DNA from: Promethearchaeota archaeon
GTDB lineage: Archaea; Asgardarchaeota; Lokiarchaeia; Sigyniarchaeales; SOKP01
NCBI GenBank assembly: GCA_013375475.1
Contig: JABXKD010000002.1
Span: 1 to 64,000 of the forward strand
Reading direction: 5' to 3'
DNA length: 64,000 nt
The notes under the pieces are model-generated. The model made no database searches, was not told where the DNA came from, and was given only the letters and a program-made list of their open reading frames with translations. Below are positions 120-19,484 of the stretch, piece by piece. A program made the position numbers and the translations under genes. Positions within the stretch are counted from its first letter, which is position 1; the number at the start of each line of letters is the position of its first letter.

Positions 120-315
120 ACTAAAAGTGAATAAAATGAGACTTTACACGAAAAAAAATTATAATACCTTAGTAGGAGGTGTGCTAGCTTTACTCTGCGG
201 TATATTGGTGACGGTATCTGATGACAGAGAATATCAATTGAATTTTGATTCTTTTGGGGTTGTGTTCCGGATTCTATTTTTTTCTCTATTTTTTCTATTA
301 CACTGCTTACTCTGA
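112..315 (+). CDS. Possible small hydrophobic protein or gene remnant; runs through a repeat remnant
   Basis: 67-aa ORF with two hydrophobic stretches; includes repeat fragment 256-273. Confidence 0.3.
   Translation: MIRLKVNKMRLYTKKNYNTLVGGVLALLCGILVTVSDDREYQLNFDSFGVVFRILFFSLFFLLHCLL
256..273 (+). repeat. Dispersed intergenic repeat, 3'-terminal fragment (box C end)
   Basis: GGGGTTGTGTTCCGGATT matches the consensus end GGGAGTGTGTTCCAGATT. Confidence 0.5.
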
Positions 316-410
316 ATAATTATTACTACTTTAACAGTAAAGTAAAAAAATAATTAAAGTAATTAGAAATACTGATTATTGTAAAAAATTAGAAATTTAA
401 ATCAAGTAAG

Positions 411-1028
411 TTAGACTTCCATATTATTGACATAGGTGTTATCCGGTTTATCTTGTATTCTCTTCTGTTTGATAAATGCTGAAAAATTCAAATAAAGAAG
501 CAATCCGAGAGAGATTAGACCGATAAACCATATGGGTGTCCTAGATAATAACATCGAGACTGCTATGAAGGAAAGGCAACACGTAAGCGGGTTCAACACC
601 TGTCCCACTAGTGGATTGCCTTGGGTGGTGTAGTAGTTCTGTTTAAGTTTATCAATTTGAGCGAATTTATTGTCTATAAATGTGCTTCCCCTGGTAAAAA
701 CAATTTTTAGTTTTAAGATGGTGTTATTTAAAAGAGTCAAATTCTCGCATCCTTCTATTACCAGGTGTTTAATGGTACAATTTTCGATGGAAATATTTTG
801 CGCGTTGCGACAGATTAACTTGTCGATTACGAGATTTTTGATCTGGTAATATGACCTGCTTCTGGATATTTTTATAAACAATGGGAGCGTTTCTACTTGG
901 TCAATGACTATTGGGTCAAGACTCGAACCATCTCCCTCCCAATTCATTTCGATTTTTAAGGCATCAATTTTTTTATCTGAGATTTTGATAATTTTAGACT
1001 TATTGTGTGTTAGGAGATTCTGAGCCAA
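411..1028 (-). CDS. Hypothetical membrane protein with short beta-helix-like N-terminal region
   Basis: GDGSSLDPIVID resembles GNGTYSEPYIIED in the NosD-like ORF 10683-12170; periodic I/L-x-I-E-N-C repeats; two C-terminal TM segments. Confidence 0.7.
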   Translation of the reverse strand: MAQNLLTHNKSKIIKISDKKIDALKIEMNWEGDGSSLDPIVIDQVETLPLFIKISRSRSYYQIKNLVIDKLICRNAQNISIENCTIKHLVIEGCENLTLLNNTILKLKIVFTRGSTFIDNKFAQIDKLKQNYYTTQGNPLVGQVLNPLTCCLSFIAVSMLLSRTPIWFIGLISLGLLLYLNFSAFIKQKRIQDKPDNTYVNNMEV

Positions 1029-1101
1029 GATTATTATCCTCTATTAGCTTCATTAGTGGATGAGTTATTAATATTTAGGTAGAAGAGACTATAAAAAAGT
1101 T

Positions 1102-1153
1102 AGTATAGTTTGAGTCGCCCACGATATTTCGAGATTGAAGTTGAGAAGTTGTT
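1102..1153 (+). repeat. Dispersed intergenic repeat, degenerate box B + box C
   Basis: AGTATAGTTTGAGTCGCCCACGATA-TTTCGAGATTGAAGTTGAGAAGTTGTT. Confidence 0.8.
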
Positions 1154-1181
1154 ACTTTAAAGTCTCACATATAGCTCTACT

Positions 1182-1604
1182 TTAGTAATACAACCACTTT
1201 ATGGTTTCTGGAATTAGGACAATGTATAAAAGAAAACTCTCGAGAATCATTTCTATGATGACGATTATAAGAATGACGACTAAGGATTCCTGTGCATTCT
1301 TTTTATATATAATTGAAAAAATCTTAACACCGAGAAAGATATTAATGAAGTATGTTACGATAACAAAAAAAATCTGAAAGAATGAATAAGTAATATCTAT
1401 AGATAAAAAAGATATAAAAAATAAGTCAAGAATGATATTAAAAAGAAATACCATGAGAAGCACTGCAGTTCTCCACAAAAGAATATAGTATAAAGAGATT
1501 CTAAATCGATAGCTCCATCCCTTTTTCCTCTCATACCAATTGACAAGCGTTATACCGATTATTATGATGATGGAATAGCGTAAAAGCTCAATGAATAAGT
1601 CCAT
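1182..1604 (-). CDS. Hypothetical integral membrane protein (~4 TM)
   Basis: 140 aa, strongly hydrophobic; co-oriented 28 bp downstream of 1633-3117. Confidence 0.75.
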   Translation of the reverse strand: MDLFIELLRYSIIIIIGITLVNWYERKKGWSYRFRISLYYILLWRTAVLLMVFLFNIILDLFFISFLSIDITYSFFQIFFVIVTYFINIFLGVKIFSIIYKKNAQESLVVILIIVIIEMILESFLLYIVLIPETIKWLYY

Positions 1605-1632
1605 AATATTCTTTCCTTTTTTCTAACACCAT

Positions 1633-3117
1633 TTAAGAATAATTTTTCTCTTCATTATTTGATTTTATTGAAGGAATTGTTTTTTTTATTGTATATACGA
1701 TCACAAATAAAATAAGGCAATAAAGGGCAGTCATAGTTGGAAAGCTAAATAACATAAATGAGTAAGATGGAGTAGGATATTGTAAAAATGCTTGAGCACT
1801 CATGTTCATTGAAAACAGCTGAAAAATGAAAAAACCAATTAATCCACAACTAGTAGAAAAAAAAATAATTGCATCTGTTTTTGAGAGGTGAAACCCAAAC
1901 CATTTAGTAGTAAACTCCCTCGAATTATCAATAACTTTGACAATCTTATCCAAACGACGGTTTTTTAATATTTTTGCAATAGGATAATAGCAGAAAAGTA
2001 CAAGTAAGATAAATATAACATCAAAGAAATCAAAATCTAGTATTGAAAACCTAAAAAATCCTCCAAATAATAGAACAAAAGATATATACAACCAAGTGAT
2101 AACTACGATATATATTAGTGCTACTGAGAGTAAAATTATAGCCCTATGAGGAGTTAATCTAATTTGAAACCACGATAGCTTATCAGAAGTTTTTGTTCCT
2201 CTAGAGTTTGATTTTTTAAGAAAAAAACTAGAGATCATGAGAGCTAAAAATATACAGAAAAAAATTATGGTTACGATAAAGTCTTCATTTTGGTAAGGAT
2301 TAGGAGCGTTGGGAAATATTCCTAAAAAAGATGCTAATTCATTATTGAATAGTGCGAGGTGACAAAAGATCCTAGCTGAAACGAGAATAATCACTACAAA
2401 AGAAACTATAAAAACGAGAAGACTATAGTTCTTAGAAATCTTTTTTGATTTATCAATGGGTTTGCCTCTTCTAACAATAAATAAACTGTAAAGGCAAAAC
2501 AAAAAAAAGGTTGCCATTATTGCAATTGGAACATTATTTAACAAAATATCGTGCGAAGTTGCCTGATATGGCCCTAGGGGAATCAAACAAAGCGAATCAA
2601 ACAGACCTGAAGAAAAAAAAGGATGTAATATAGATTCAAAAAATAGTTGTACAATGAAGACTATCCCGACTAATGACACACAAAATATAAATAACGACTG
2701 ACCGTGAGATATTTTTAACCCAAAATAGCTTACGATTCTTTCTTGAGGAATGATTTTTTCTTTACCCTCGCGCGTGTTATTTTTGCGCAGTAAAATTTTT
2801 CTTAAAGCATAGATGCTTAGAATCAGAAATATAGTAGATACAATTATCCTTATAAGAATTGGAAAAAAATGGTAGATCAAGTAATTTTCAGGACGATAAG
2901 ATGAATCCAACAAGTACTCAGGAAGTGTATAGAATAGAAAATTAAATAAATTGATGAAAACATCTCCAGCTAAAGTACTAGGGATCATAAAAATCCCTAG
3001 AATGGATAAAATCAAAAATAAGCTGGTATGTGAACGACTTAACTCAAATCTAAATAATTTTAATCCTGAATTATTAAAACCTGACTTTTGTTTTTCTTTA
3101 TCTTCCATATTGATCAT
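1633..3117 (-). CDS. Polytopic membrane protein built from ~5 internal 2-TM repeats
   Basis: Recurring [WYL]F-x-[FLI]-x-[LI]-[ST]-xxx-[SA] motif before hydrophobic hairpins. Confidence 0.8.
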   Translation of the reverse strand: MINMEDKEKQKSGFNNSGLKLFRFELSRSHTSLFLILSILGIFMIPSTLAGDVFINLFNFLFYTLPEYLLDSSYRPENYLIYHFFPILIRIIVSTIFLILSIYALRKILLRKNNTREGKEKIIPQERIVSYFGLKISHGQSLFIFCVSLVGIVFIVQLFFESILHPFFSSGLFDSLCLIPLGPYQATSHDILLNNVPIAIMATFFLFCLYSLFIVRRGKPIDKSKKISKNYSLLVFIVSFVVIILVSARIFCHLALFNNELASFLGIFPNAPNPYQNEDFIVTIIFFCIFLALMISSFFLKKSNSRGTKTSDKLSWFQIRLTPHRAIILLSVALIYIVVITWLYISFVLLFGGFFRFSILDFDFFDVIFILLVLFCYYPIAKILKNRRLDKIVKVIDNSREFTTKWFGFHLSKTDAIIFFSTSCGLIGFFIFQLFSMNMSAQAFLQYPTPSYSFMLFSFPTMTALYCLILFVIVYTIKKTIPSIKSNNEEKNYS

Positions 3118-3151
3118 TCTTTATTTTCTAATGCTAAATTGATTGATTAAT

Positions 3152-3236
3152 TTAAAAAGATTCAGGATTGATTGTTGCTATTTATAACAAATAGTATGTC
3201 TTTTAATACATGAAATTTGTCTAATTACACATAAAT
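3152..3236 (-). promoter_or_regulatory. Duplicated upstream region, copy 1: TATA-like TTTTTAA plus imperfect palindrome TATGTC-N6-TACATG (3195-3212)
   Basis: Aligns nearly without gaps to 4644-4727. Confidence 0.7.
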
Positions 3237-3261
3237 GTCATCCTTCGTAAGGTTCATTTAC

Positions 3262-4563
3262 TTATAATAATGGTTTTTTTGGGCTTTTTTTTATGTAGAG
3301 GAAAGCTGTTGATACATTGATAACGGAAATGATTCCTATTAGTAAAATCATGATAAATAGGTTATATCCCGGGATTATTAATCTAGGATCAGTAAGTATG
3401 TCTCGATCAAATAAATAGATCCGATGTCTCCCTCCAGCTACTATATACCTACCATCAGATGATATATCTAAATTATAATCATAACTTGAGGCAAATGCTC
3501 CATCTAATCTATATCTCCATATTGGTATTGAACTATTTCTATTAAAAAGATAAAGAAAATTATCATAACTTTGTGCTGCAATATAGTCTCCATTATATGA
3601 AATAGCAACTGATGCAATTTCATCTTTTGTCAAGTAAATCCATTCGGGTGTTGGATTTGATCGATTAAATAAGTATACATTATGATCCGCAAAGCCACCT
3701 CCTACGGCAATATAATTTCCGTCTTTAGATACTTTAATAGAACCTACCTCATCAGAAGTGTTATATGTCCATATTGGAACTGAACTGTTTTTGCTAAAAA
3801 GATACACTTTATCACCGCCAGATGCTATATAATTACCGTCTGCAGATATCGATAAAGATACGCTCATATCCCCTGACAAAGTATAATCCCATTCAGGTGA
3901 AATTTTCGAGGTATTAAAAAAAAAAAGCTTTGCAGCATTATCAGTAACTGCCATATATTTACCGTTTGAAGAGAGTGCCACTCTAAGTGCTAAACCTGTT
4001 GTGGGAAATTCTAAAATTGAAGAAAGTTCTGTATTGTTAAAAAGAAAAACTTTATTACGCGTACCACTTGCGGCGGCTGCTAAAGTCCCATCATCAGTAA
4101 TCCCTACATCATAAATCCAACCTCCTGTATAATACAACCAGTGGGGTGTGGAATTTGCATTAGTAAAACTATAAGCCGTTGCTTCGGAGTAACCTCCACC
4201 TACAACAATGTTAGATCCACTTGCTGAAATCGCTACTGAACAGAAACTATTCACAATTGAATAATTCCATAACGGCTTCTTTGCGTTAGAAGTCAAGTTA
4301 TCAAATAAAAACAGCTTCCCATTTTCCGGCAAATTAATATTATACATATTATTCTGGCTGGTAGCTGTTATATAGTGACCATCAGAAGAAATTGCTACCG
4401 CAGAGGGGTATTGGTTTCCCGTTGAGTAGGACCATAGTGGAGTTGTTGAAGGATCTGAATATATAAAAGCAGAACTCTCACTAATTAACAAAGAATTCGC
4501 TAACATGATGAATGCAAATAAAAGTAAAAAATGAACCTTAAGTCGTTTTAAATTCATTTTCAA
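3262..4563 (-). CDS. Secreted WD40/PQQ-like beta-propeller protein with C-terminal Loki-CTERM-like anchor
   Basis: N-terminal signal peptide; repeats 'PxW-x-Y...VAISxDGxYIA..G...vyLF'; C-terminal IPGY + TM + lysine-rich tail. Confidence 0.85.
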   Translation of the reverse strand: MKMNLKRLKVHFLLLFAFIMLANSLLISESSAFIYSDPSTTPLWSYSTGNQYPSAVAISSDGHYITATSQNNMYNINLPENGKLFLFDNLTSNAKKPLWNYSIVNSFCSVAISASGSNIVVGGGYSEATAYSFTNANSTPHWLYYTGGWIYDVGITDDGTLAAAASGTRNKVFLFNNTELSSILEFPTTGLALRVALSSNGKYMAVTDNAAKLFFFNTSKISPEWDYTLSGDMSVSLSISADGNYIASGGDKVYLFSKNSSVPIWTYNTSDEVGSIKVSKDGNYIAVGGGFADHNVYLFNRSNPTPEWIYLTKDEIASVAISYNGDYIAAQSYDNFLYLFNRNSSIPIWRYRLDGAFASSYDYNLDISSDGRYIVAGGRHRIYLFDRDILTDPRLIIPGYNLFIMILLIGIISVINVSTAFLYIKKSPKKPLL

Positions 4564-4643
4564 TATTAAATTAGCTGTATTTTTTTAAAAAATCACTGTA
4601 AGTTTTTTTAAATCTTCAATAATTCCTAATTTATTAATATTCC

Positions 4644-4727
4644 TTAAAAAGATTCAGTATCTATTGTTGTCAAACAAAACAAGATGTATGTCATGTAAGA
4701 CATAAACTTTGTTCAATTAAAATAAAT
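4644..4727 (-). promoter_or_regulatory. Duplicated upstream region, copy 2, with perfect palindrome TATGTC-N6-GACATA (4687-4704)
   Basis: Same 43-bp offset between TTAAAAAGATTCAG and TATGTC as in copy 1. Confidence 0.7.
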
Positions 4728-4793
4728 ATTCTAACTCATAAAAATTAGGTATAGAAGGTTTTAATAATCAATATACTATATTCTGTACTTAGG

Positions 4794-5258
4794 ATGAATT
4801 CTATTACCGATTTATTTGAAAAATATCATTTAGATAGTTTTGAGGAAGCGCTAGAGCTAAGAGGTAATGAAAAAATTACTTTTTTTAATGATCTAAATTC
4901 TCTATTAAGATCAATTTGCAGAATTTTTGATAAATTAACAACAATATTTTCTCTTAGGGGTGGGCAAGTATTGATGAGCTTAGCAAAATTACAGGATTCT
5001 GAAGAGGTTATCTCCAAAACTGATGTATTGAACTGTTTAAATATAGATCGGCGGGAAAAATTGATCCACGCTTTTGATTATTTATTAGAGCAGAATTATA
5101 TTAAGATTAAAAAAAAAACGAGTAAGTTTCATATGGTTAAATTGAATGAACAGGATAACCCCGATTTTACCTTATTACGGGAAATCGTGCAGAAATTTTG
5201 GACCTCACCTCAGGAGGAAAAAGATAAAGCAAAATCATGGAGTGGAATAGAACGATAA
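4794..5258 (+). CDS. Putative winged-helix DNA-binding protein / transcription regulator
   Basis: ISKTDVLNCLNIDRREKLIHAFDYLLEQNYIKIKK...HMVKLN has a wHTH-like pattern; divergent from 3262-4563. Confidence 0.6.
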   Translation: MNSITDLFEKYHLDSFEEALELRGNEKITFFNDLNSLLRSICRIFDKLTTIFSLRGGQVLMSLAKLQDSEEVISKTDVLNCLNIDRREKLIHAFDYLLEQNYIKIKKKTSKFHMVKLNEQDNPDFTLLREIVQKFWTSPQEEKDKAKSWSGIER

Positions 5259-6127
5259 GGCAAAACCGGAAAATTCCAGAGATTAGATTTGAGAACGATG
5301 AAAATGCAAATCAGTTTTTTACATTGATTAAAACGGAATATTTAAAAAATTTATATCAAACCTATTTTTGGTTAATTTTGCTGGTTACGATCTATGTGGT
5401 TTACGAGTTAATAACGACTTCTTTTACTCCTACCATTACAATATTAATTATAGACCAAGTCATCATCTGCGTGCTTCTTTCGTTCTACTTATTAATCTAC
5501 TTCTTCAATTTATCCTATATCAGGTTTACACCTACAATAATAAATTTTCTTGAAAAAGAATTGCGCTTGCTAGATTTTAGGTTTCAAAGGAAATATAAGA
5601 TCAGACCCTCCAACTTTTTATTTGTTTGTTTTACAATTATTGTATTTATTCTCGTTACAATTGGTACTTACCTTTATTCTAACAACGATGTAATATCCCT
5701 CATTATGAGATTACTTATTGTTTATATCTTTACAGGCATTACAATACCGGTACTTCGCGGGAAATTACACGATTTTTTTATTGTAAGCTTGAAAAATTCA
5801 TATTTTGTTCAAATAGAACTAAGGTTTAAATTAATTAAACATAAAGAAGTAGAATCTCAAACGGTTAAAATTTTTATGACCTCAAATAAGTTAGGTTCTA
5901 AAGCAGATCACTCAGGAAATGCGCGTTATAATAGAATAAGTGAAAAAAGATGGCTTCAAAGGAAAAATAACCGAACTTTACCACGTTTTATAACTAGAAA
6001 CTCTCTCTTTTTTCATGAAAATGCCACTTTAATAAACTTCAAGGAACAATTTTTGAATATCGTTTCAGCAATTCGAGAGTGGGATACAACTAAAGGTTCA
6101 GGCTTAGAGTGGAACAGGTTTGTGTGA
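5237..6127 (+). CDS. Hypothetical membrane protein (~4 TM); last ~11 codons and stop come from the dispersed repeat
   Basis: 296-aa ORF; C-terminal GSGLEWNRFV* is encoded by repeat 6093-6127. Confidence 0.75.
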   Translation: MEWNRTIRQNRKIPEIRFENDENANQFFTLIKTEYLKNLYQTYFWLILLVTIYVVYELITTSFTPTITILIIDQVIICVLLSFYLLIYFFNLSYIRFTPTIINFLEKELRLLDFRFQRKYKIRPSNFLFVCFTIIVFILVTIGTYLYSNNDVISLIMRLLIVYIFTGITIPVLRGKLHDFFIVSLKNSYFVQIELRFKLIKHKEVESQTVKIFMTSNKLGSKADHSGNARYNRISEKRWLQRKNNRTLPRFITRNSLFFHENATLINFKEQFLNIVSAIREWDTTKGSGLEWNRFV

Positions 6128-6182
6128 GTAGTTGACGATACGCGTAAGTTTAGTTTCGAAGTTGAGAAGTTGTGTTCCTGAA
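6093..6182 (+). repeat. Dispersed intergenic repeat, full-length copy (boxes A+B+C)
   Basis: AAGGTTCAGGCTTAGAGTGGAACAGGTTTGTGTGAGTAGTTGACGATACGCGTAAGTTTAGTTTCGAAGTTGAGAAGTTGTGTTCCTGAA. Confidence 0.9.
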
Positions 6183-6242
6183 TTAAATTTTTTTTATTCT
6201 ATTTGCAATTCCAAATCGCATAAGGAGATTAAATCTCTCTAT

Positions 6243-6485
6243 CTAAATCCTCCAGTCTACAGATTTTAGAAATATATATAAAAATCCTCCTATCAATCCA
6301 ATTATGGCAGATATTACTATACAAAGGACAGAATTATTTCCTCCTATCGCTGTTACATTCCTCGATTCACATTTAGGGCAATTTCGTAGGTAATCTCCTT
6401 TTTTAGGGCAATTTGCATCTGATCCATGTACTTTTACAGAGAATCTATGATTACAGTCTTTACATCTATATTTGCATTCTGTCAT
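6243..6485 (-). CDS. Small zinc-ribbon protein with C-terminal TM anchor
   Basis: YRCKDCNHRF...CPKCES plus a hydrophobic C-terminal helix; flanked by two full repeats. Confidence 0.75.
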   Translation of the reverse strand: MTECKYRCKDCNHRFSVKVHGSDANCPKKGDYLRNCPKCESRNVTAIGGNNSVLCIVISAIIGLIGGFLYIFLKSVDWRI

Positions 6486-6596
6486 TTTTTCACTTACGAA
6501 TTTTTATTCACTTTAGACTGTATATTGGTTTTAGGATATATAAAGCTATTTCACCTTTTTGGTGGTGAAAATGGGATTTTATGTGTAAAAAGAAGT

Positions 6597-6690
6597 AAGG
6601 TTCAGACTTAGAGTGAATCGGGTTTGTGTTGAGTGGTAGACGATACGAGTTTTGTTTCGAGATTGAAGGGAAGGGGTGGAGTTCCAGATA
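6597..6690 (+). repeat. Dispersed intergenic repeat, full-length copy (boxes A+B+C)
   Basis: AAGGTTCAGACTTAGAGTGAATCGGGTTTGTGTTGAGTGGTAGACGATACGAGTTTTGTTTCGAGATTGAAGGGAAGGGGTGGAGTTCCAGATA. Confidence 0.9.
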
Positions 6691-6820
6691 AATTTTTTTT
6701 ATTTTTAATCCCATTGAATAACGATAGGAAATATTATTATTGTCTGACTTATTCATTTTTTTAATTAATTGCTACCTTAGCAAACCATTCATACATAAAT
6801 ATCGAATTTATTGTGAATAA

Positions 6821-7981
6821 ATGATACAAGAATTAGAAAAAAAGGACTTTCAAAAAGTAGAGTATTTGTTTGGGGAAAGATCTTTTATTAATAGTTTCCG
6901 AAGTCACCTTGAAAGAACTCCTGTTCCAAAACAAGTGTTTGTAGATGATATAAAAAATCCACAAACAGCGGTAATTATCATTATTCCTAGTCTCTTCTTT
7001 GGAGGTCGAGCGGATAACGAGGAGTTCAACAAAGAATTAAGAAAAATGCTTTATGAAGATCTGCTTCTAATTTTCAAAGAAAAACAACTTCTAGAAATTG
7101 ACTGTTATGTTTCTAACAATGCTTGGGAGAAAGCCGTAAAATCTGTTCTCAAAGATCCATTTCTCTATAATCGATACTATTATGAGATTAAAGAACTGAA
7201 GCTGAAGCATTGGAGAAACCTTATTCCTGAAGGTTATAGTATAAAACCAGTCGATCTAACACTATTGGAAAACGATTATTTGAAAAACTTTGACTGGTTG
7301 ATAGAGGAAATAGAAGAAAATTGGTTTCCCCTTGAAGATGGTTTGAAGGAAAATCGAGGATTCTATCTAGTTCGAGAACAAGAAGAAATAGTATGTTGGT
7401 GCACAACCGAATATCTAACGGCTGATAATGAAATTGAGGTTGGCATAGCAACGAGAGAGGAGTATCAAAGAAAAGGTTTTGCTTCAATAATTGGTTCAGC
7501 AACAGCTGAATTTTGCCTAGAAAAGTACAAGTCTGTTGGATCGCATTTTGGTATTACTAATGTTGGTTCTTATAAAACTGCAGAAAAGATTGGGTATGAA
7601 AAGATAAGAGAATACAAGAAAGCAGCAGCTTTCATTAATCAAGTGGATAATTGGGTCGCAAATGGTTTTCAGAAATCACGGAATAAAGATTATGAGGAAT
7701 CCATCAGTTGGTACGAAAAAATTGTCGATGCTGCAAATAAAGAAACTACAGAATATCTAGAATCCTACTATCTTAATGGAGAATTTCCTATTGAACGAGT
7801 ATGTTTCAGAATAAGTACTTTTTTTTCTGCGTTAGGTAATATTCAGAAAGCAGTTGATTATCTAAGAAAGGCGATTGAAATCGGATTTAAAGAAAAAGAG
7901 GAACTTCTTGAATGTAAATTATTGGAACCCCTGCATGGAACAGAAGAATGGAATAAAATGATTCAACTAATGAGAAATTAG
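6821..7981 (+). CDS. GNAT-family N-acetyltransferase with C-terminal TPR-like helices
   Basis: EIEVGIATREEYQRKGFAS acetyl-CoA motif A; SYKTAEKIGY motif B; 'ALGNIQKAVDYLRKAIEIGF' TPR-like end. Confidence 0.85.
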   Translation: MIQELEKKDFQKVEYLFGERSFINSFRSHLERTPVPKQVFVDDIKNPQTAVIIIIPSLFFGGRADNEEFNKELRKMLYEDLLLIFKEKQLLEIDCYVSNNAWEKAVKSVLKDPFLYNRYYYEIKELKLKHWRNLIPEGYSIKPVDLTLLENDYLKNFDWLIEEIEENWFPLEDGLKENRGFYLVREQEEIVCWCTTEYLTADNEIEVGIATREEYQRKGFASIIGSATAEFCLEKYKSVGSHFGITNVGSYKTAEKIGYEKIREYKKAAAFINQVDNWVANGFQKSRNKDYEESISWYEKIVDAANKETTEYLESYYLNGEFPIERVCFRISTFFSALGNIQKAVDYLRKAIEIGFKEKEELLECKLLEPLHGTEEWNKMIQLMRN

Positions 7982-8043: not shown

Positions 8044-8050
8044 TAATTTT

Positions 8051-8231: not shown

Positions 8232-8408
8232 TTATTGATCATAATCCTCTTCATGGAAAGCGTTTTCATTATCACCGTTTTCCTTATCTTCATCGTCTTT
8301 TGAATTCCACTCATTGTCTTCTTCTTTTGTTTTCTCTTCTTCACGATTCCAACTCCTCTCATTCCATTCATCCGTTTTCATTCTTTTTCTAAACTTAATT
8401 TTTTTCAT
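8232..8408 (-). CDS. Putative 58-aa protein with basic N-terminus and very acidic C-terminus
   Basis: MKKIKFRKRMKTDEWNERSWNREEEKTKEEDNEWNSKDDEDKENGDNENAFHEEDYDQ; SD-like AGGAG upstream; not in the ORF track. Confidence 0.6.
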   Translation of the reverse strand: MKKIKFRKRMKTDEWNERSWNREEEKTKEEDNEWNSKDDEDKENGDNENAFHEEDYDQ

Positions 8409-8527
8409 AATTTAAATCTCCTAACCATTTTTTCTAAAGTACAAATTAAATTTCTTTTAAAATTCTTAGACATAATTATTATACCATATAAAATTTCTAC
8501 ATATTAATTCCGGTAATCTAGGATTGA

Positions 8528-8562
8528 TGTTTCGAAATTGAAGTGTGGAATTGTGTTCCGGG
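8528..8562 (+). repeat. Dispersed intergenic repeat, box C only
   Basis: TGTTTCGAAATTGAAGTGTGGAATTGTGTTCCGGG. Confidence 0.85.
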
Positions 8563-8592
8563 GTTATTACATCACAATTTTTTATCTTTTGT

Positions 8593-8799
8593 CTATGTAA
8601 CGCTGTGTAAATGAAGTGCGAGTAGTATTATACTAACAATGAGAAATAGTATCCCTGGTGCTAGAAAACCGACGATGAATATTAAATCATAACCTGCAGA
8701 GCTGGTATTAACTCCAATTACACCTATAGTTAGTAGCATTATCCCTATAATCAGAAGGGTAATCCCTAGAGTTTTTTTATTAATAGCCATTAAGATCAC
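8593..8799 (-). CDS. Small 2-TM membrane protein
   Basis: 68 aa with two hydrophobic helices; lies between two repeat copies. Confidence 0.7.
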   Translation of the reverse strand: MILMAINKKTLGITLLIIGIMLLTIGVIGVNTSSAGYDLIFIVGFLAPGILFLIVSIILLALHLHSVT

Positions 8800-8875
8800 G
8801 CTTTTTATTAGTTTGATATAAATATGTATTTACTGTGTATATAATGTTTAGCTATTTCAAATACCTACTCAACAA

Positions 8876-8910
8876 GTTCCGAGATTGAAGGGTGGGAGTG
8901 TGATCCGGAG
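8876..8910 (+). repeat. Dispersed intergenic repeat, box C only
   Basis: GTTCCGAGATTGAAGGGTGGGAGTGTGATCCGGAG. Confidence 0.85.
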
Positions 8911-9037
8911 TGTTTACTTCATTATTTTTTAGATTCTTTTTTTGTTGATGATTTTATTTATTTTAACAATCATTACAATAACTTTTTATATTCGACATTC
9001 AATTTATCTAATGTTTCAAAATCTCAAGATTAATATT

Positions 9038-10024
9038 ATGAAATATAGAGTTTTAGGAAAAACAGGATATAAAGTTTCAGAGATATCAATTGGAACATGG
9101 CAATTAGGAGGTAAATGGGGAGAACCATTCGATAAAGCTATAGCTCAAAATACATTATCTACAGCAGTTTCAAATGGAATCAATTTCTTTGATACTGCTG
9201 ATGTGTATAAAGAAGGCCAAAGCGAACAATTTTGTGGTAGTTTTTCAAAATCTGCTAATGAAAAAGTCTATGTTGCAACCAAATGTGGTAGACGATTAAA
9301 TCCTCATAATACTGAAGGATATAACGAGGAAAATATTAGAAAATTTGTTGATGATAGTTTAAAGAATATGGAAATTGAGACAATTGATTTACTTCAACTT
9401 CACTCTGCTCCAACAGCAGTATATTATAGACCAATGGTCTTTGATATTTTAGATTCCTTGAAAGATGAAGGGAAAATTCAAAATTATGGTGTAAGTGTGG
9501 AAAAAGTTGAAGAGGCATTAAAAGCTATTGAATTTCCAAATGTATCTACTGTACAAATTATTTTTAATGTATTTCGACAAAGGCCAAGCGAATTATTATT
9601 TGAGCAAGCTAAAAAGAAAAACATCGGCATTATTGTTCGTGTTCCATTAGCAAGTGGACTACTTACTGGAAAATTCACCAAGGATACTGTATTTAAAGAG
9701 GGAGATCATAGATATTTTAACAGGAATGGAGAAGCATTTGATAAAGGTGAGACATTTGCAGGAGTGGATTATGAAATAGGATTAAAAGCTGTTGAAGAAA
9801 TAAAGAAAGTCTTTGGAAATCCTGAAACTCTTGCTCCTTATGCATTACGTTGGATTTTGATGTTTGATGCTGTTTCTTGTATCATTCCGGGTGCAAGTCG
9901 GGTATCCCATGTTGAATCAAACATTCAAGCTTCAGATTTAGAGCCTTTATCAAATGATCAAATGGTTCAAATTCAAGAAATCTATGAAAAAAATATTAAA
10001 CAGACAGTGCATCATATCTGGTAA
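9038..10024 (+). CDS. Aldo/keto reductase
   Basis: Start corrected to MKYRVLGKTG; GINFFDTADVY, ATKCG, IDLLQLH, PLASGLLTGK, IPGAS motifs. Confidence 0.95.
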   Translation: MKYRVLGKTGYKVSEISIGTWQLGGKWGEPFDKAIAQNTLSTAVSNGINFFDTADVYKEGQSEQFCGSFSKSANEKVYVATKCGRRLNPHNTEGYNEENIRKFVDDSLKNMEIETIDLLQLHSAPTAVYYRPMVFDILDSLKDEGKIQNYGVSVEKVEEALKAIEFPNVSTVQIIFNVFRQRPSELLFEQAKKKNIGIIVRVPLASGLLTGKFTKDTVFKEGDHRYFNRNGEAFDKGETFAGVDYEIGLKAVEEIKKVFGNPETLAPYALRWILMFDAVSCIIPGASRVSHVESNIQASDLEPLSNDQMVQIQEIYEKNIKQTVHHIW

Positions 10025-10116
10025 ATAAAATTTCTTCTTTAATAATATTCGGCCCTTTTTTTCGATTTTCTATTGATAACTTTATAAAAAAAAAATTGAA
10101 AATTATTAGAGTCAAA

Positions 10117-10323
10117 TTATTCTCTAACTATTAAATATATAATACAACCGATACACCCAGACAATAATACGATTAATAACCATACAGCAGCATTCATATC
10201 CCTTTTCTTGGCGTCTTTGTATACCCATACGACCAATCCTATAGCAACAATCCAAAAAATGATAAAAAATATAATTATCCCTATCATTAAGGGTGTTATC
10301 ATTACAGTAGATTGAAAAATCAA
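10117..10323 (-). CDS. Small membrane protein (PLDc-N-terminal-like, WVYKDAKKR…W family)
   Basis: WVYKDAKKRDMNAAVWLLIVLLSGCIGCIIYLIVR. Confidence 0.75.
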   Translation of the reverse strand: MIFQSTVMITPLMIGIIIFFIIFWIVAIGLVVWVYKDAKKRDMNAAVWLLIVLLSGCIGCIIYLIVRE

Positions 10324-10528
10324 TATAATTTCCTCATTTAATATTCAATAAATATTATTCCTCTGAGTAAAAATATCCTAAATTATCTAAAAATTTTTTT
10401 TTTGAATTATTTTTAGGATAATCTAAGAATTTTTGAGACATTCTAACCACTTTTATTGAATTTTACACTTTTGTTAAAAAAAGAATCTTATAAATTTAAA
10501 TATTTCCACATAGGATTACTTAAAAAAA

Positions 10529-10592
10529 GGGTTTGTGTTTAGTGATAGACGATAGTGTTTCGAGATTGCAGGGTGGGAGTGTGTTCCAGATT
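10529..10592 (+). repeat. Dispersed intergenic repeat, boxes B+C
   Basis: GGGTTTGTGTTTAGTGATAGACGATAGTGTTTCGAGATTGCAGGGTGGGAGTGTGTTCCAGATT. Confidence 0.9.
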
Positions 10593-10682
10593 ATATTCAA
10601 TGATTGATTTCAATGAAAATTCTATGGAAAAAATTCTAATCAATTAAATTATGGAGATGTGAAAAAATACAGAAAAAGGTAA

Positions 10683-12170
10683 TTATTCTTGTCCTTTTCT
10701 TTTGCGTCTAATTAGCAGTATAGTTGCTATGCCTATTACTGCTATTCCACTTATAGTTGAAATTATAATAACCAATTCGAGAGGAAATATATCGATACAA
10801 GTATTATTTATGAAGATGTTTCCTTCACAATTTTCTTCTTTAATGCATTTACCATTTTCAATTAAACTATTTCCCGAAATTGTGTTGAAATCACTTGCAA
10901 TTAAATATATTCCGCTTAAACCGTTTTTATTTGCAGTGTTTCCAGTAATTATATTGTTGCTACTATAATGTAAAAACACTCCGCTGAACTGGTTTTTATT
11001 TGCTATGTTATCAGTAATATTGTTATGTTCACTATCATGTAAATATACCCCATATCCTCGATTATTATTAAGAATGTTTCCAGAAATAATATTAGTATCA
11101 CAGATCCAGGAACTGATGCCATCAAAATTATCGGATGCATTGTTTTTTGAAACAGTGTTATAATAACTAAATTCTAAATCGATTCCAGATTCGGAATTGC
11201 CGTCTACAGTATTCTCCCATATGTTGATAATATAGCTTTCACTTAAATAAATCCCATCATTATTATTATGGCTTGCTATATTTCCCGTGATGTTAATATT
11301 AGTGCAAGAAGATAACGTAATTCCTATGGATCCATAAGAAGTATTTAAGTTTTCAAGTGAAGATTCATGACAATCATACAATATAACTTGTCCAGCATTC
11401 GTGAAATTATCTGACCCTAGGTTTATTTTATCGTTATAATAATAAACAGGTTTTCCGTTCACCAGATTTGTAGAATCTGCATTTATACTATTTGATGATA
11501 GGTCTCCATATAAAATCATCCCACAGTCGTTCATTCTATTATTCGAAATTGTGATATTATTACAAATAAATATATCTATCCCATCTCGCCCCCAATACAA
11601 GCTATTATTAACAATAGTATTATTATTACTAAAGTATAAGAATATCCCGCTCTCAATGCTATAAGTTGCGGTATTTTCTGAAATGGTGTTATTATTACTA
11701 TAACTTAATCTTATCCCGATATAGTGAGATGAACAATTATTTTTGATTAATTGGGAATTGTTAATATTATGCAACTTGATTCCCGCATCTGATCCCATTG
11801 GACCCGAATTATAGACAGTACAGTTTTCAATTTTAAAAAAAACATTGGAATTTTCAATCAGGATGCAACTTCCCGAACCTCCACCGTCAATTACTAAGTC
11901 TTCTATAATATAAGGCTCGGAATATGTTCCGTTTCCCGTGCAGATTCCCGCAGTCTTCGCAGCAGTCCAATTATTATCAATATGAATTTTTCCTGAAACT
12001 GTTGAGATTTTCAAATTTTTATCATCTGAATTGGTATCATCGCTGAAATCTGGACTTTTGTTGCTATTATCAGTAGTAAAACTAAGCTTAGTACTAACAA
12101 TTGGGAATAAAGCGAAAATGACTCCTAAAGTTATGAGAATTATTATTTTTGATTTTCGATTTGATTTCAT
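10683..12170 (-). CDS. Membrane-anchored right-handed parallel beta-helix (NosD/pectin-lyase-like) surface protein
   Basis: Signal/TM at N-terminus; many GIxLxxSxNNTIxxN repeats; C-terminal TM + RRKRK. Confidence 0.9.
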   Translation of the reverse strand: MKSNRKSKIIILITLGVIFALFPIVSTKLSFTTDNSNKSPDFSDDTNSDDKNLKISTVSGKIHIDNNWTAAKTAGICTGNGTYSEPYIIEDLVIDGGGSGSCILIENSNVFFKIENCTVYNSGPMGSDAGIKLHNINNSQLIKNNCSSHYIGIRLSYSNNNTISENTATYSIESGIFLYFSNNNTIVNNSLYWGRDGIDIFICNNITISNNRMNDCGMILYGDLSSNSINADSTNLVNGKPVYYYNDKINLGSDNFTNAGQVILYDCHESSLENLNTSYGSIGITLSSCTNINITGNIASHNNNDGIYLSESYIINIWENTVDGNSESGIDLEFSYYNTVSKNNASDNFDGISSWICDTNIISGNILNNNRGYGVYLHDSEHNNITDNIANKNQFSGVFLHYSSNNIITGNTANKNGLSGIYLIASDFNTISGNSLIENGKCIKEENCEGNIFINNTCIDIFPLELVIIISTISGIAVIGIATILLIRRKRKGQE

Positions 12171-12279
12171 TCTGATTTTATTAAAATTTTTAAGAGTATC
12201 GCTAACGAAGTAAGCTAATAAAATATTTAAGAGTAGACTTTTCGTTTTACAAATTTTTTAATTTTCTTATTAAGATTTA

Positions 12280-12320
12280 GGTTTGTGTTGAGTGGCGACG
12301 ATACGATCCTACTCCGAAAT
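12280..12320 (+). repeat. Dispersed intergenic repeat, box B plus degenerate start of box C
   Basis: GGTTTGTGTTGAGTGGCGACGATACGATCCTACTCCGAAAT. Confidence 0.8.
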
Positions 12321-12406
12321 CTTTTAAGATAATTTAGTATTTATAAAATAGGAAAAAAAAAGATACCGTTATTTCTGCTTTAATATTGCATTTATTCAAT
12401 ACAATT

Positions 12407-12904
12407 TTAAGGGAGATATGTTTGAATTAACAATGTACTCTCATCAATCGCATTATTCAGGAAGTTCCCCTGTATGCTTATAGTCGCATTATGAAATCCT
12501 GGTAAAATTGTATCTGTAGCCATTTGAAGTGTAACCGACCCACTCATTTCTTGATGATTACTTGAAAATTCTGTTTCTGGAGAAACAGGACTCGATATTA
12601 CATACCCATCGAGTACAAATTTGAATATAATTGTAGCCACTCCAATTTCGACTAATGTAGCATGAGTATTAAAAAGACCATACACCGATTCTCCTGATTT
12701 TACCGTAAAATTAATTGTAATTGCGTTGATATGAATATCTGTGTAAGTTGGATTTGTGAAATGGACTCCTGAATCATATACAAACCAGGTTTTCTGAATA
12801 CCACTATTTTGTTCCGGAGGGAGAGTTAGAGAAATTACTCCTAACACTAAACCAGATAATCCAATAATAAGGGCAAAGAATACTAATCCCTTTCCTTTTC
12901 CCAC
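12407..12904 (-). CDS. Hypothetical exported beta-rich protein with N-terminal TM
   Basis: GTG start with SD GAGGTGA; N-terminal hydrophobic helix. Confidence 0.75.
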   Translation of the reverse strand: MGKGKGLVFFALIIGLSGLVLGVISLTLPPEQNSGIQKTWFVYDSGVHFTNPTYTDIHINAITINFTVKSGESVYGLFNTHATLVEIGVATIIFKFVLDGYVISSPVSPETEFSSNHQEMSGSVTLQMATDTILPGFHNATISIQGNFLNNAIDESTLLIQTYLP

Positions 12905-13329
12905 AATAGATCACCTCTTTAATTTTGTTTTATTATATTTATTTTTGTATCTTTTTAATTATCTTCCACATCTGATATATTATAAATTTTCTTGTATATC
13001 TGTGGAACAATTTTTCATCAAACTCATTGGTTTAATTATAGGGATTTTTATACATTCTGTATTTGCCAATCTATTTGACACATTAATCCCGTGAAAAAAG
13101 TAAATTGAAATGAATTAGAAAAGGCTAAAAAGAAGTTATTACTATCTTATTAGATTATAAAGATATGTTTTAAATTTAACTAAGTTTTTAATTTTCAATT
13201 CGCACCTTACGAGTTTTATGCGAAGCATATTCCGATTTCTACTTCGAATAACAAGAGCATTTCTTTACGTTTACAGTAAATCGGATTTATAATATTAATT
13301 AGCTTAAAAAATTAAAGAGCAGAATAAAT

Positions 13330-13722
13330 ATGCCTAAAATGAAAAAAAAACAGCAAAAAAAGGGACGGAGGAGTTACACTCCTAATCCAACTCCGACAGT
13401 GTCGAGAGTTAAAATGCCATATAGAAAGAACGGAGAGATGTTTGCGCGGGTTACTGACATTTATGGTCAAGAGCGGATGGGTGTCTATTGTGAGGATGGA
13501 AAACACCGTAATGGAAGAATCCGGGGAAAAATCAAAAAACGAGTGTGGGTAAGAAAAGGAGATTTAGTCATAATTAATCCTTGGGAATTTGAAACGGCAG
13601 TTGATGGTAAACCAGAGAAATGCGAAATCTCTTGGAGATATTTACGACATGAAGTTTCTTATTTAGAACGAAATAGAAGAATTCCTAAATCTTTAGAAAT
13701 TAATAACATTCCTCTCCTCTAA
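13330..13722 (+). CDS. eif1a: Archaeal translation initiation factor 1A
   Basis: GEMFARVTDIYG..CEDGKHRNGRIRGKIKKRVWVRKGDLVII.PW OB-fold signature. Confidence 0.93.
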   Translation: MPKMKKKQQKKGRRSYTPNPTPTVSRVKMPYRKNGEMFARVTDIYGQERMGVYCEDGKHRNGRIRGKIKKRVWVRKGDLVIINPWEFETAVDGKPEKCEISWRYLRHEVSYLERNRRIPKSLEINNIPLL

Positions 13723-13856
13723 AATTTTTTTTTTTCAAGAAATAAAAAAAGATAAGATTCGATAACAATCGCAGAACAAATTCTTACTAATTACTACCTA
13801 CTACTTACTATATATTAAATATTATTATATTTTATTGATTTGTAACAAAAAGAAGT

Positions 13857-14099
13857 CTAATATCGAAAATCTCGAACTTGCGCAGGAGCGGCTTCTGTTA
13901 CTACTACATTACTCGCAGCAGGACCCTTATCACCTTGAGTGATTTCAAATTCTACTTTATCTTCTTCGTTTAGTGTAGCAAATTCATCATTCTCTTTAAC
14001 AATAGCAGTGTGATGAACGAATACATCTCCTTCTTCTTCAGTTGCAATAAATCCATAACCTTTACGGTTATTAAACCATTTAACTGTACCTATAGTCAA
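13857..14099 (-). CDS. cspA: Cold-shock domain protein
   Basis: GTVKWFN..KGYGFI (RNP1), DVFVHH (RNP2), [10 protein letters not shown]. Confidence 0.95.
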
Positions 14100-14260
14100 T
14101 TTTAAAACCAGTTTTCATATAAATTGTTTTTTTTTTATCAGTTCATACTGAACTATTTAAGAAAATTAATGATGATGTAAATAGTTTACTCCCAGAAATT
14201 GTAAATTGACTTATAATTTTTCTATTTATTACCATTCTCCTTTAATGCAAAATTATAATT

Positions 14261-14297
14261 TGTTTCGAGATTAAAGGGTAGGGTTCTGTTCCTGATT
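14261..14297 (+). repeat. Dispersed intergenic repeat, box C only
   Basis: TGTTTCGAGATTAAAGGGTAGGGTTCTGTTCCTGATT. Confidence 0.8.
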
Positions 14298-14485
14298 CTA
14301 GTTTCCCTTTTTTTTGGAGAACTATATAAATAACATTAGGTTAAATTATTCATGCTTTTTTCTGAAGGAGTCACACTTGGTTAATTATTTAAGAATTTTT
14401 GTTTCTAATCTAATACTTAGACTTAATTGTATATTGCTCAATAAATAAATTTTTTATTATTTATTTTACTTCCCCAGTTGATTTC

Positions 14486-14704
14486 TTAAATACCTTTTCT
14501 AGTGATTCCAATTATCGTGTTACATTGAGAACATACACTCACATCTAAAGAGACATCTGCTGTTTTTTGAGAGTGTATATAAATTGGAGATTTTATTCGC
14601 ATTGTCAGAAGGTTATTAGTTCTTAAAAGACCCCTTTCATCTTTTTCGATGTGCATTTCACTCTTGCAGTGAGGGCAAACCATCGAACTAGCAGGTTTAA
14701 ACAT
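14486..14704 (-). CDS. Small zinc-finger protein
   Basis: CPHC…CSQC pairs. Confidence 0.7.
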   Translation of the reverse strand: MFKPASSMVCPHCKSEMHIEKDERGLLRTNNLLTMRIKSPIYIHSQKTADVSLDVSVCSQCNTIIGITRKGI

Positions 14705-14987
14705 ACTTTTTAATCACTTTTTATTACATTTTTGTTGAGAGTTAGAATAAGTGATCCCTAAATATAATAAAAATATACCGTTCATAAAAATTAAATAATT
14801 GGAAACGGTACCTTCTCAGAATGATCAAAAAAAAGATTTAATAAGAAGCTGACATGCTCTAAAGTCTTAAGAACGCTTAAAAAATAAAATTTCTAGGTAA
14901 TATTTTTGATAATTAGATTCTGATACCGAGACTTATTTCTCTCTTATAGATTTTATCAATCTAATCGCTTAAATTGAAAATTAGCAA

Positions 14988-15449
14988 CTATACTTTATGT
15001 CTTAGGTATATTGCTTGTAATCTAAAGGCTTGATAAATATGACCGATTGTGTGATGTATTATGAATCCAAACCAATCTTCGTACGTCATTTCTCTCCCAA
15101 AAGGCGATTCAAACGTTTCTTTAAGATCCTCTTCTGTATATTTAACCCTAACTTCTACATAGGCTTCAATTGCTTTACTAAATAAATCTAATAATTGCTC
15201 GTGTAAAGGTGCGGTGGATTCAGGATCTAACTTAATTGTTATTTCTGTACTACTTGCATTAGGATTATCCATTTTTTTCATCGCCATATATAATGTACTG
15301 ATAGAGTGTATAAATAAATATTGAGCGGTTTTTTCGCGTTTAAATAACGGAGTGTTCATGGATTCCTCAAAATGATTATCCTTTCGCTTTTCAAACAAAC
15401 TTTTAGCGTAATCATATACAAACTTCAGAGATTTGATACTTTCTGGCAT
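14988..15449 (-). CDS. DinB/YfiT-like four-helix protein
   Basis: N-terminal His (LFIH) and HHTIGHIYQ motif. Confidence 0.75.
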   Translation of the reverse strand: MPESIKSLKFVYDYAKSLFEKRKDNHFEESMNTPLFKREKTAQYLFIHSISTLYMAMKKMDNPNASSTEITIKLDPESTAPLHEQLLDLFSKAIEAYVEVRVKYTEEDLKETFESPFGREMTYEDWFGFIIHHTIGHIYQAFRLQAIYLRHKV

Positions 15450-15503
15450 AATTTTTAATATAGGATGTTAAGTAAATAAATTTTTTGGTATAAATGACTA
15501 TTA

Positions 15504-15527
15504 GGTAGTGGGAGTGCGGCCTAGATT
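15504..15527 (+). repeat. Degenerate box C remnant of the dispersed repeat
   Basis: GGTAGTGGGAGTGCGGCCTAGATT vs consensus GGGTGGGAGTGTGTTCCAGATT. Confidence 0.4.
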
Positions 15528-19481: not shown

Positions 19482-19484
19482 AAT

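Follow-up and report, generated by a model that had tools for sequence, protein, structure and literature searches.

We analysed the first 64,000 nucleotides (nt) of contig JABXKD010000002.1 in the Promethearchaeota archaeon assembly GCA_013375475.1 (hereafter the window), whose first ~17 kb hold many copies of one short repeat set between small genes. Comparison with related genomes indicates that these copies are partial, 5'-truncated duplicates of the sequence behind the 23S ribosomal RNA (rRNA) gene, with the 3' end kept, and that positions 1 to ~17 kb represent an island of variable content that separates the 23S gene from a conserved core. The 23S-trailer duplicates probably bound small gene modules in this island, the modules moving by recombination between copies. 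The initial annotation had read the array as a possible gene-capture or shuffling system, an interpretation that is partly supported. Throughout, G-numbers denote genome assemblies, G000 being this one (3,920,170 bases in 288 contigs, with the window on contig C211) and the others those of relatives; L-numbers denote sequence loci, either metagenome contigs or stretches of assemblies; X2, X5 and X7 are sequencing runs; and modules A, B and C are the three parts of the repeat consensus, from 5' to 3'.

The repeat had been described as unrecognised. Alignment, the Rfam model RF02540, a long profile and duplex energies now trace it to the 23S rRNA gene, of which it forms the 3' end plus trailer. 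Co-oriented clusters of the motif were also seen in further species of the genus, a 94-nt copy finding matches in 6 of 41 relatives, and in G020:C34 and G009:C558 the alignment extends upstream into the 23S 3' end, where the sarcin-ricin loop and the terminal helices are recognisable. RF02540 places the 23S genes at G020:C34:45014-48345, G009:C558:2705-6046 and G008:C3:65805-69172, and in all three genomes the full-length repeat begins at most 15 nt from the model end. As far as GTGTTCC, modules A, B and C can pair with the ~160 nt that precede the 23S gene. The leader-trailer duplex was calculated at -91 to -112 kcal/mol in three genomes, whereas shuffled trailers gave -43 to -57 ±6, so that the motif forms one side, the 3' strand, of a very long processing stem of the pre-23S transcript. 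This stem strand is followed on its 3' side by an optional small hairpin (GGAGT-N4-ACTCC) and then by a run of T (T-run), the usual archaeal termination signal. T5 or longer lies within 30 nt of 24 of the 28 copies that reach the 3' end, the background being 13%.

The shape of the copies was assessed with a long profile of 288 positions, which starts ~170 nt before the end of the 23S gene and extends through the trailer and T-run. It collected 121 copies in the window, in parts of 10 other genome assemblies and in 38 metagenome contigs, L096 being left out as a duplicate of L089. The model 3' end is reached by 110 of the 121, while the 5' starts are spread across positions 1-215. The longest copies take in the last ~170 nt of the 23S gene and the commonest class, module C only, accounts for 31 copies starting at positions 196-215; at least 12 C-only copies in five genomes begin at the same position. 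All 27 multi-copy sequences (94 copies) carry every copy on one strand. Because the repeat is the 23S 3' end plus trailer, the array is anchored on the 23S gene.

The site had been judged unlike the attC sites of integrons, which are imperfect inverted repeats with R''/R' core ends whose single strands fold into hairpins, and this holds: both strands of three copies fold no better than shuffles (z 0.02 to +1.42, that is 0.0 to +1.4 after rounding; minus strand -1.6 to -5.5 kcal/mol) and the copies match no Rfam family. In the window, Rfam 15 yielded only three transfer RNAs (tRNAs) at gathering score; at E≤1 the single match within 1-17,000 was Flavo-1 (E 0.85), a chance match, and the trailer 3' of the 23S gene in three relatives matched no family. 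The repeat is thus neither an attC-like hairpin nor a member of a known RNA family. A protein-coding origin was rejected, since the 5' part resembled a conserved C-terminus (...GSGLE*) while frames differ among copies and yield no consistent open reading frame (ORF). A scan for bacterial-type terminators (4 sites against 7.3 expected, none at copies) was uninformative for archaeal T-run terminators.

Several features of the rRNA genes themselves were also recorded. The 23S genes of the genus (G020, G009, G008) span 3,330-3,370 nt against the 2,987 positions of the model, a difference that points to large expansion segments. This excess of ~350 nt, together with Rag/Arf/Roc GTPases among the cargo and flanking genes, suggests an Asgard, Lokiarchaeia-like lineage. 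No linkage exists between the 16S and 23S genes, the former lying 49 kb upstream on the same contig in G008. In this assembly a lone 50-nt fragment (last ~35 nt of 23S plus module A) sits at C155:144-193, 143 nt from the contig start, with the stop codon of a minus-strand gene downstream of it; C155 shows no synteny with other islands and the fragment matches no Rfam family. Similar lone 23S-end fragments lacking the trailer were seen in G008:C26, G057:C1, G056:C15, G010:C59, G005:C91 and G051:C141, and in the closed genome G038 at 4,111,015, ~300 kb from its 23S gene.

Within the window, the motif was found on inspection at all 11 places listed by the initial annotation, always on the plus strand, over a span of 255-15,529. 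The copies, with their extents, are as follows.

255..275, plus strand: copy of the shortest class (last ~20 nt of module C, TGGGGTTGTGTTCCGGATT) with T-run; same class in G008, G020 and G056; minus-strand gene 411-1028 comes next
1098..1161, plus strand: copy with degenerate B and variant C (GAAGTTGAGAAGTTG), 3' end eroded; nhmmer E 1.7e-5; the C variant also occurs in G008 and G020
6072..6202, plus strand: full trailer copy A+B+C (variant C) with T-run; long profile E 1.8e-19, model 138-260
6597..6710, plus strand: full trailer copy A+B+C with T-run; long profile E 1.6e-18, model 154-263
8000..8044, plus strand: C-only copy with T-run; nhmmer E 8.8e-6
8515..8571, plus strand: C-only copy with T-run; nhmmer E 2.1e-6
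8848..8933, plus strand: C-only copy with degenerate hairpin and T-run; nhmmer E 4.4e-8
10525..10594, plus strand: B+C copy, no T-run after it in the T-run check; nhmmer E 3.4e-12
12277..12321, plus strand: B-only copy; E 0.012; blastn 93% over 27 nt to the 6597 copy
14254..14317, plus strand: C-only copy with T-run; nhmmer E 2.7e-7
15494..15529, plus strand: degenerate short copy abutting the stop of minus-strand gene 15526-17061; E 0.07

A profile built from the copies and run against the whole assembly returned eight strong copies (nhmmer E 3e-12 to 2e-5), all on the plus strand of C211 and none elsewhere; the two not given nhmmer values above are matches 6113-6184 and 6616-6688, inside the two full copies, and the other six extend over 1098-1152, 8000-8044, 8515-8564, 8848-8912, 10526-10594 and 14254-14299. 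A second iteration kept the same eight and added nine matches elsewhere, all at E >1. Genome-wide scatter was thus not seen, the 8 of 8 strong copies lying within one 14-kb stretch and on one strand, and the profile searches agree with the earlier statement that copies cease at ~16 kb, none occurring in the window beyond 15.6 kb. The three weak copies (12277-12321, E 0.012; 15494-15529, E 0.07; 255-275, E 0.83, or 0.096 in another search) share the plus strand and are of short types, consisting of module B alone or of half of C, and the half-C type recurs in other genomes; the module B 25-mer has two matches at three or fewer mismatches against none in 100 shuffles. The three-part consensus first proposed describes the two full copies only (A+B+C, 6093 and 6597): the others are 5'-truncated, as B+C (10529), degenerate B+C (1102), C-only (8010, 8528, 8876 and 14261) or ~20 nt (256 and 15504), and the B-only copy at 12280 (12277-12321) is without the 3' part. 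The stop codon of a minus-strand gene lies near 9 of the 11 copies, at 0 to ~190 nt by comparison of ORF and copy coordinates, in line with the proximity noted before, and the first 35 nt of copy 6072..6202 overlap the stop of ORF 5237-6127. As a separate observation, a ~100-nt stretch (window 8044-8146, plus strand) is conserved at 69-73% (blastn) after short copies at five loci in four genomes, its relatives lying in G056:C81, G056:C18, G020:C89 and G008:C3. A similar C-terminal peptide (…TIQY…) is encoded on the minus strand in two of the five, and the stretch may represent the end of an ORF on that strand. It could also be what is left of a gene that once stood convergent to the trailer as its ancestral neighbour.

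The placement of the array follows from comparison with relatives. In G016 the 23S gene is followed by a single trailer, a 1.2-kb gap and then the homologue of 18450-19481, and tblastn synteny shows G016:C70 to be collinear with the window from 18450 on to 58 kb; this near-empty site identifies the window region as an island inserted behind the 23S gene. The conserved core (17227..64000, no strand assigned) is likewise collinear with G012:C101 from 17.2 kb on, corresponding to 33.9 kb on in G012. Upstream of that point G012 has a different variable stretch of at least 34 kb, with copies out to 17.5 kb, the insertion in G000 being at least 17 kb. The island lies directly beside the 23S gene in G008, G009, G020, G056 and G038, and the left flank of that gene is conserved in relatives (PanE, DUF72). 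In G000, contig C12 stops within PanE, while the first position of C211 already falls in the array. Judging from the relatives, the 23S gene should lie just left of position 1. Arrays are found at contig ends in G000, G012 and G008, probably because the rRNA gene breaks the assembly.

The only 23S match in G000, at C263:4025-7400, scores 1829 bits against ~2550 in relatives, and behind it lie a 5S-like gene and a small membrane ORF of plastid type; C263 looks like a contaminant contig from an algal plastid or a bacterium, which fits the contamination figure of 6.4%. At the boundary between island and core, paralogous Rag/Gtr1-Arf-like small GTPases occur at window 17233-18198 and, in two copies, at G012:C101:25145-26119 and 33888-34853.

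DNA comparison of window 1-17,500 with other arrays showed that modules behave as units, recurring there with different neighbours. Segment 12353-13109 matches G056:C18 at 88%, where a copy follows it, 13112-13763 (eIF-1A) matches G012 at 84%, where a copy precedes it, and 8201-8510 matches G015. Segments 8576-8852 and 14484-14782, which are 5.6 kb apart in the window, are adjacent in G012. A NUDIX module has ~90% DNA identity at four loci (three metagenome contigs and G008): homology starts in the T-tract directly behind the left copy and extends to ...GTGTTCCGGA in a C-only copy situated 105-107 nt past the start of the gene, and outside these limits the sequences are unrelated, the left copies being of different classes. 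A DUF4184 module is flanked by copies at four loci.

A second line of evidence comes from natural populations. Logan contigs of four runs from four studies were aligned to window 1-20,000, using long-sided joints only; contig joints with sides below 30 letters, parts lacking cover and two go-back joints (12288->8875 and 6629->6162), which may stem from other repeat copies, were excluded. The contigs differ from the window by whole modules, with breaks at the 3' end of copies, as the initial annotation had anticipated for a comparison of strains. In X7, 8772-8909 is joined to 12319-12780 through 244 other letters (side 138), and in X5 (side 146) and X2 (side 39) 8764-8909 is joined to 13143-13386 through 83 letters. 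Position 8909, the A of the ...CCGGA ending the 8873-8911 copy, is thus the left breakpoint of two different module sets; on the right, the X7 variant breaks at 12319, where the 12277-12321 copy ends. Also in X7, 14245-14439, which holds the 14257-14297 copy, is replaced by 21 letters (joint 14244->14440, side 79), and 15147-15511 is skipped (joint 15146->15512, side 117), this joint ending inside the 15494-15529 copy. In X5, a contig matching the 6597 copy continues leftward into 23S 3'-end sequence, with a loose end TCGAAAGAGGAGCTCG before 6598. An X2 joint counted as weak runs from 13098 through 37 letters to a copy start, and in G056:C18 this module is followed by the same 37 letters.

The arrangement occurs in several genomes of the genus and extends beyond it. 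A metagenome scan with an 18-nt pattern listed 80 loci, of at least 114 that exist; 39 among the 80 listed carry profile-supported copies (74 copies), with 18 of 18 multi-copy contigs one-stranded, and the other 41, which gave no profile match, were treated as chance matches to the pattern. The 23S end or trailer is matched in 28 of 42 genomes of the genus, with extra partial copies in G049:C276 (seven on one strand) and some in G056, G053, G012 and G008. The closed, single-contig genome G038, from another family of the same order, has three extra 5'-truncated copies of its own, sequence-unrelated trailer. They follow the 23S gene at distances of 4.7, 19.7 and 23.2 kb, share its strand and end without exception at the same T-run. 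G032, with two 23S genes, has no extra trailer copies, and the 16S 3' flank in G038 and G008 shows no downstream array, only a few short scattered matches. Viral carriers were sought in IMG/VR with two repeat seeds (16 and 17 nt), and the 8 and 21 loci returned, all matching over the seed length only, were rejected as chance.

The copies delimit gene modules, as had been proposed. Cargo genes in window 276..15493 were annotated from the ORF list, Pfam and the translations, and are listed below; most run opposite to the repeat.

411-1028, minus strand: beta-helix membrane protein
1182-3117, minus strand: membrane proteins
3262-4563, minus strand: WD40 protein
4794-6127, plus strand: two ORFs with no Pfam match, the second (5237-6127) reading as a multi-pass membrane protein
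6243-6485, minus strand: Zn-ribbon protein
6821-7981, plus strand: GNAT-TPR protein
8232-8408, minus strand: acidic peptide of 58 amino acids (aa)
8593-8799, minus strand: peptide with two transmembrane segments
8942-10024, plus strand: aldo-keto reductase
10117-10323, minus strand: 68-aa membrane peptide
10683-12170, minus strand: NosD-like beta-helix protein
12407-12904, minus strand: 165-aa protein
13330-13722, plus strand: eIF-1A
13857-14099, minus strand: cold-shock protein
14486-14704, minus strand: Zn-finger protein
14988-15449, minus strand: DinB_2 protein

In metagenome contigs, 33 inter-copy segments measure 377-3944 nt (median ~1 kb) and hold mostly one or two ORFs, 33 co-oriented with the repeat and 21 opposite; these are therefore not promoterless cassettes of the integron style. 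Families that recur in the arrays include NUDIX, PNPOx, DUF4184, Ras/Roc GTPases, TIR, NosD-type beta-helix proteins, GNAT, eIF-1A and 4HBT. The eIF-1A gene stands between trailer copies in three independent sequences, window 13330-14099 (with the cold-shock gene alongside), G012:C101:16336-16758 and L090:1614-2006, and this translation factor thus behaves as a cassette. Ras/Roc GTPases form array modules in the metagenome contigs L089, L148, L150 and L119, and TIR-domain proteins occur in at least seven arrays. These are among the defence-type genes in islands of relatives, which also include a DprA/SLOG-like gene beside a PRTase-like gene at G008:C3:76538-78637 (L010:6538-8637) and genes at G038:C1:96927-99143 (L049:10927-13143), the G038 island having PRTase-CE, Fic/DOC and LRR proteins. 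Finally, a 76-nt direct repeat, 75% identical, was noted at 3152-3227 and 4644-4719, just upstream (on the minus strand) of two adjacent gene starts, those of a 494-aa membrane protein and the WD40 protein, and could be a shared promoter or 5' leader.

A search for a recombinase was carried out on 289 ORFs against Pfam: 20 from the window, 28 picked from 29 in G008, 89 from seven other assemblies, 17 flanking, 23 from the G038 island, one Xer-like gene of G000, and 111 of 137 from the metagenome contigs, leaving out seven of L096 (same content as L089) and 19 of ~80-103 aa. E cut-offs ranged from 1e-2 to 1e-5, settings at which short or very divergent proteins are missed, and the scan covered ORFs down to 60-80 aa. 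None of the 20 window ORFs matches PF00589, which bears out the earlier statement that the window holds no recombinase. The companion proposal, that a dedicated recombinase lies outside the window, found no evidence: none of the 288 array and flank ORFs serves as a candidate and G000 has only one Xer-like tyrosine recombinase. This sole PF00589 gene, on contig C55, is of XerC/D type with a SAM-like N-terminal domain; the whole assembly has no PF00239 (resolvase) and no PF00078 (RVT_1). Two ORFs were considered and rejected as enzymes of the array, namely 5237-6127, which has a fitting size for an integrase and a multi-pass membrane translation with no Pfam match, and 411-1028, which lies beside trailer copies in four genomes and has beta-helix-like repeats with a C-terminal membrane anchor.

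Taken at its most probable, the process would run as follows. A module with one trailer copy at its far end would leave or enter the array by recombination between copies, the crossover falling in or shortly behind the conserved terminus ...GGGAGTGTGTTCCGGA with its T-tract. In this scheme the trailer of the 23S gene itself would act as the primary attachment site and the copies as cassette-borne sites, each insertion beside an existing copy adding one module and one copy; repeated insertion of this kind would yield co-oriented, 3'-anchored and 5'-variable copies. The modules comprise one or two genes with their own promoter, in either orientation, most of them bounded by a trailer copy. The combination of variable 5' and fixed 3' boundaries matches the attachment-site logic seen at the 3' ends of tRNA genes, in which the portion of the gene between the crossover and the gene end is brought in by the arriving DNA.

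A number of observations weigh against this account. The archaeal 23S gene of G000 is unassembled, its adjacency to the array being deduced from relatives. For the DUF4184 module, the class of the right-hand copy changes from locus to locus, so that the statement that each module carries its own copy is true of some modules only, and some module junctions have no copy (window ~13110, G012 29944/29967). The nucleotides between ...CCGGA and the module body vary among NUDIX copies, so the crossover point is not fixed by these data. Neither a circular module nor an exact excision product occurs in the run contigs, which cannot show rare forms. The window copies are 65-92% alike and 20-95 nt long, a poor substrate for homologous recombination. 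Lastly, 0 of the 288 ORFs (window, 10 further assemblies and 38 metagenome contigs, with flanks) match an integrase, resolvase, transposase or reverse transcriptase family, so that the arrays offer no enzyme for the proposed recombination at the copies.

As to that enzyme, host functions, meaning homologous recombination between copies or the single Xer-like recombinase, seem slightly ahead of a dedicated recombinase elsewhere, given that the arrays never contain an integrase; that G038 shows this layout with an unrelated trailer is also counted in their favour. A dedicated site-specific recombinase encoded elsewhere, either of a new family or a co-opted Xer-like protein, which would recognise the trailer end in the manner of IntI-attC or Xer-dif, departs from the favoured account in the enzyme only and is possible at well below even chances. 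It would explain why module C is highly conserved across species with unalignable flanks, why at least 12 C-only copies in five genomes have a common start and ~20-nt short copies are retained, and why breakpoint 8909 recurs; the copies are, moreover, too short and diverged for easy homologous recombination. However, no candidate gene was found among the 288 ORFs in or beside the arrays, the one XerC/D-type tyrosine recombinase of G000 is on another contig with no resolvase in the assembly, the G038 architecture with its unrelated trailer is hard to reconcile with a sequence-specific enzyme, and on reading the sequence the core has no dif-like palindrome. A broader version of the favoured account is equally tentative: a gene-capture platform that some archaea of this order would have at the end of the pre-23S transcription unit, in which the last ~20-45 nt of the trailer and the terminator would be a portable recombination site and modules of one or two genes would be exchanged between cells or species, through a recombinase outside known families or through host termination, processing or repair at the rRNA terminator, making the system an independently arisen analogue of integrons.

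Explanations in which the copies do not mediate movement fare less well. That they are inactive scars of integrase-bearing elements (proviruses, plasmids), serially integrated at the 23S 3' end and then decayed, is unlikely. In its favour, attachment sites at RNA-gene 3' ends show just this pattern of fixed 3' and variable 5' boundaries, by analogy with the tRNA case in the accessible part of PMC4898812, and many cargo genes are accessory or defence-like (TIR, PRTase-CE, Fic, NUDIX). Yet no integrase remnant exists in the 288 ORFs, the modules are of only 0.4-4 kb (median ~1 kb) with one or two genes, repeat seeds gave only chance-length matches on IMG/VR viral contigs, and one small module is ~90% identical in different arrays, its junctions marked by copies in the same places, a sign that small units have moved recently. 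We consider it quite unlikely that the copies are kept chiefly as spare rRNA terminators or insulators against read-through from a very strong 23S promoter, their duplication being incidental. The 3' end with T-run retained in 24 of 28 copies, the conservation of module C and the often convergent genes downstream (9 of 11 window copies) would suit such a role, which leaves the origin of the duplicates and their coincidence with module boundaries unexplained. It also fits poorly with the mixed ORF orientation in other arrays (33 co-oriented, 21 opposite) and with textbook archaeal termination, in which the T-run alone suffices and the preceding 30 nt need no conservation. A terminator role is compatible with recombination between copies and does not exclude it. 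Retro-copying, by which pre-23S 3' fragments would be reverse-transcribed from the terminator end and inserted with 5' truncation like that of long interspersed nuclear elements, would also give a common 3' end at the transcript end and variable 5' truncation, but it is already disfavoured and appears very improbable, since G000 has no RVT_1 and the arrays no reverse transcriptase, the copies lie only downstream of 23S, on one strand and between modules (8 of 8 strong ones in one 14-kb stretch), and modules travel with the copies.

Among known systems, the closest kind is the additive genomic island at tRNA genes, and the array is integron-like in logic and not an integron. Additive flexible islands of Alteromonas at tRNA and transfer-messenger RNA (tmRNA) genes keep partial tRNA repeats downstream of their cassettes, according to the accessible part of the source (PMC4898812). 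As far as that part of the article describes them (PMC4898812), the likenesses are a stable-RNA gene at one edge, cassettes that vary in number and order among strains and species, a partial direct repeat of the RNA gene 3' end downstream of cassettes (here co-oriented with the gene) and recurrence of the same cassettes across genomes regardless of phylogeny. Content that varies among relatives between conserved flanks, with a near-empty site (G016), is a further likeness. The present islands differ in their anchor, which is the 23S 3' end plus trailer and not a tRNA, in their archaeal host, in their many copies per island (11 in the window; 18 profile matches in G012) with modules of median ~1 kb, and in that no integrase was found in any array (0 of 288 ORFs).

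Integrons have been reported in Archaea, going by the accessible text of PMC9668308. They share with the present array small cassettes split by a repeated site, seemingly one site each, a fixed primary site at one end and accessory cargo. Here, in contrast, no IntI (the integron integrase, a tyrosine recombinase) stands beside the array, the site is conserved in sequence and has no hairpin whereas attC is conserved in structure, the genes have their own promoters and both orientations whereas integron cassettes are mostly promoterless, co-oriented and expressed from Pc, and the primary site belongs to a transcription unit for rRNA. Xer-dependent modules include integrative mobile elements exploiting Xer (IMEX) at dif and the pdif modules of Acinetobacter plasmids, dif-like sites being 28-bp imperfect palindromes that alternate in orientation in pdif arrays. 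Like the modules described here they are small, lack their own recombinase, are bounded by copies of a host site and are moved by a host enzyme; the present site, unlike theirs, is asymmetric, always direct and derived from an rRNA trailer. Archaeal pre-rRNA processing stems carry a bulge-helix-bulge motif, and the native source of the copies is the 3' strand of the leader/trailer helix around 23S; extra trailer-strand copies and their use as module boundaries are, as far as seen, absent from accounts of such stems. In the accessible parts of the literature (including PMC8813620, PMC3119063, PMC5704250 and one bioRxiv preprint; supplements and subscription journals outside this coverage) there is no account of trailer-copy arrays or of the 23S 3' end as an archaeal integration hotspot. 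Confinement to one 14-kb stretch and one strand, with no inverted ends in the alignments, does not correspond to a miniature inverted-repeat transposable element, an insertion sequence end or a dispersed repeat of the REP or BOX type. The spacing of 347-5,000 nt with genes between copies is, as stated previously, not that of a CRISPR array, whose period is ~60-80 bp.

Cassette-adding islands are known beside tRNA and tmRNA genes, with integrases doing the work; here the anchor is the 23S trailer, the modules are integron-sized and the arrays examined show no integrase. The same architecture with an unrelated trailer in a second family means that the cause may lie in the rRNA 3' flank itself and not in one motif. 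Arrays lie at contig ends, as rRNA genes break assemblies, so this flexible gene pool is under-sampled in metagenome-assembled genomes, and the repeat offers a polymerase chain reaction (PCR) handle for the recovery of cassettes from sediments. The cargo includes TIR, LRR and NUDIX proteins and small GTPases and, if modules do move at trailer copies, the arrays would provide a simple route of gene flow in a lineage central to questions on the origin of eukaryotes.

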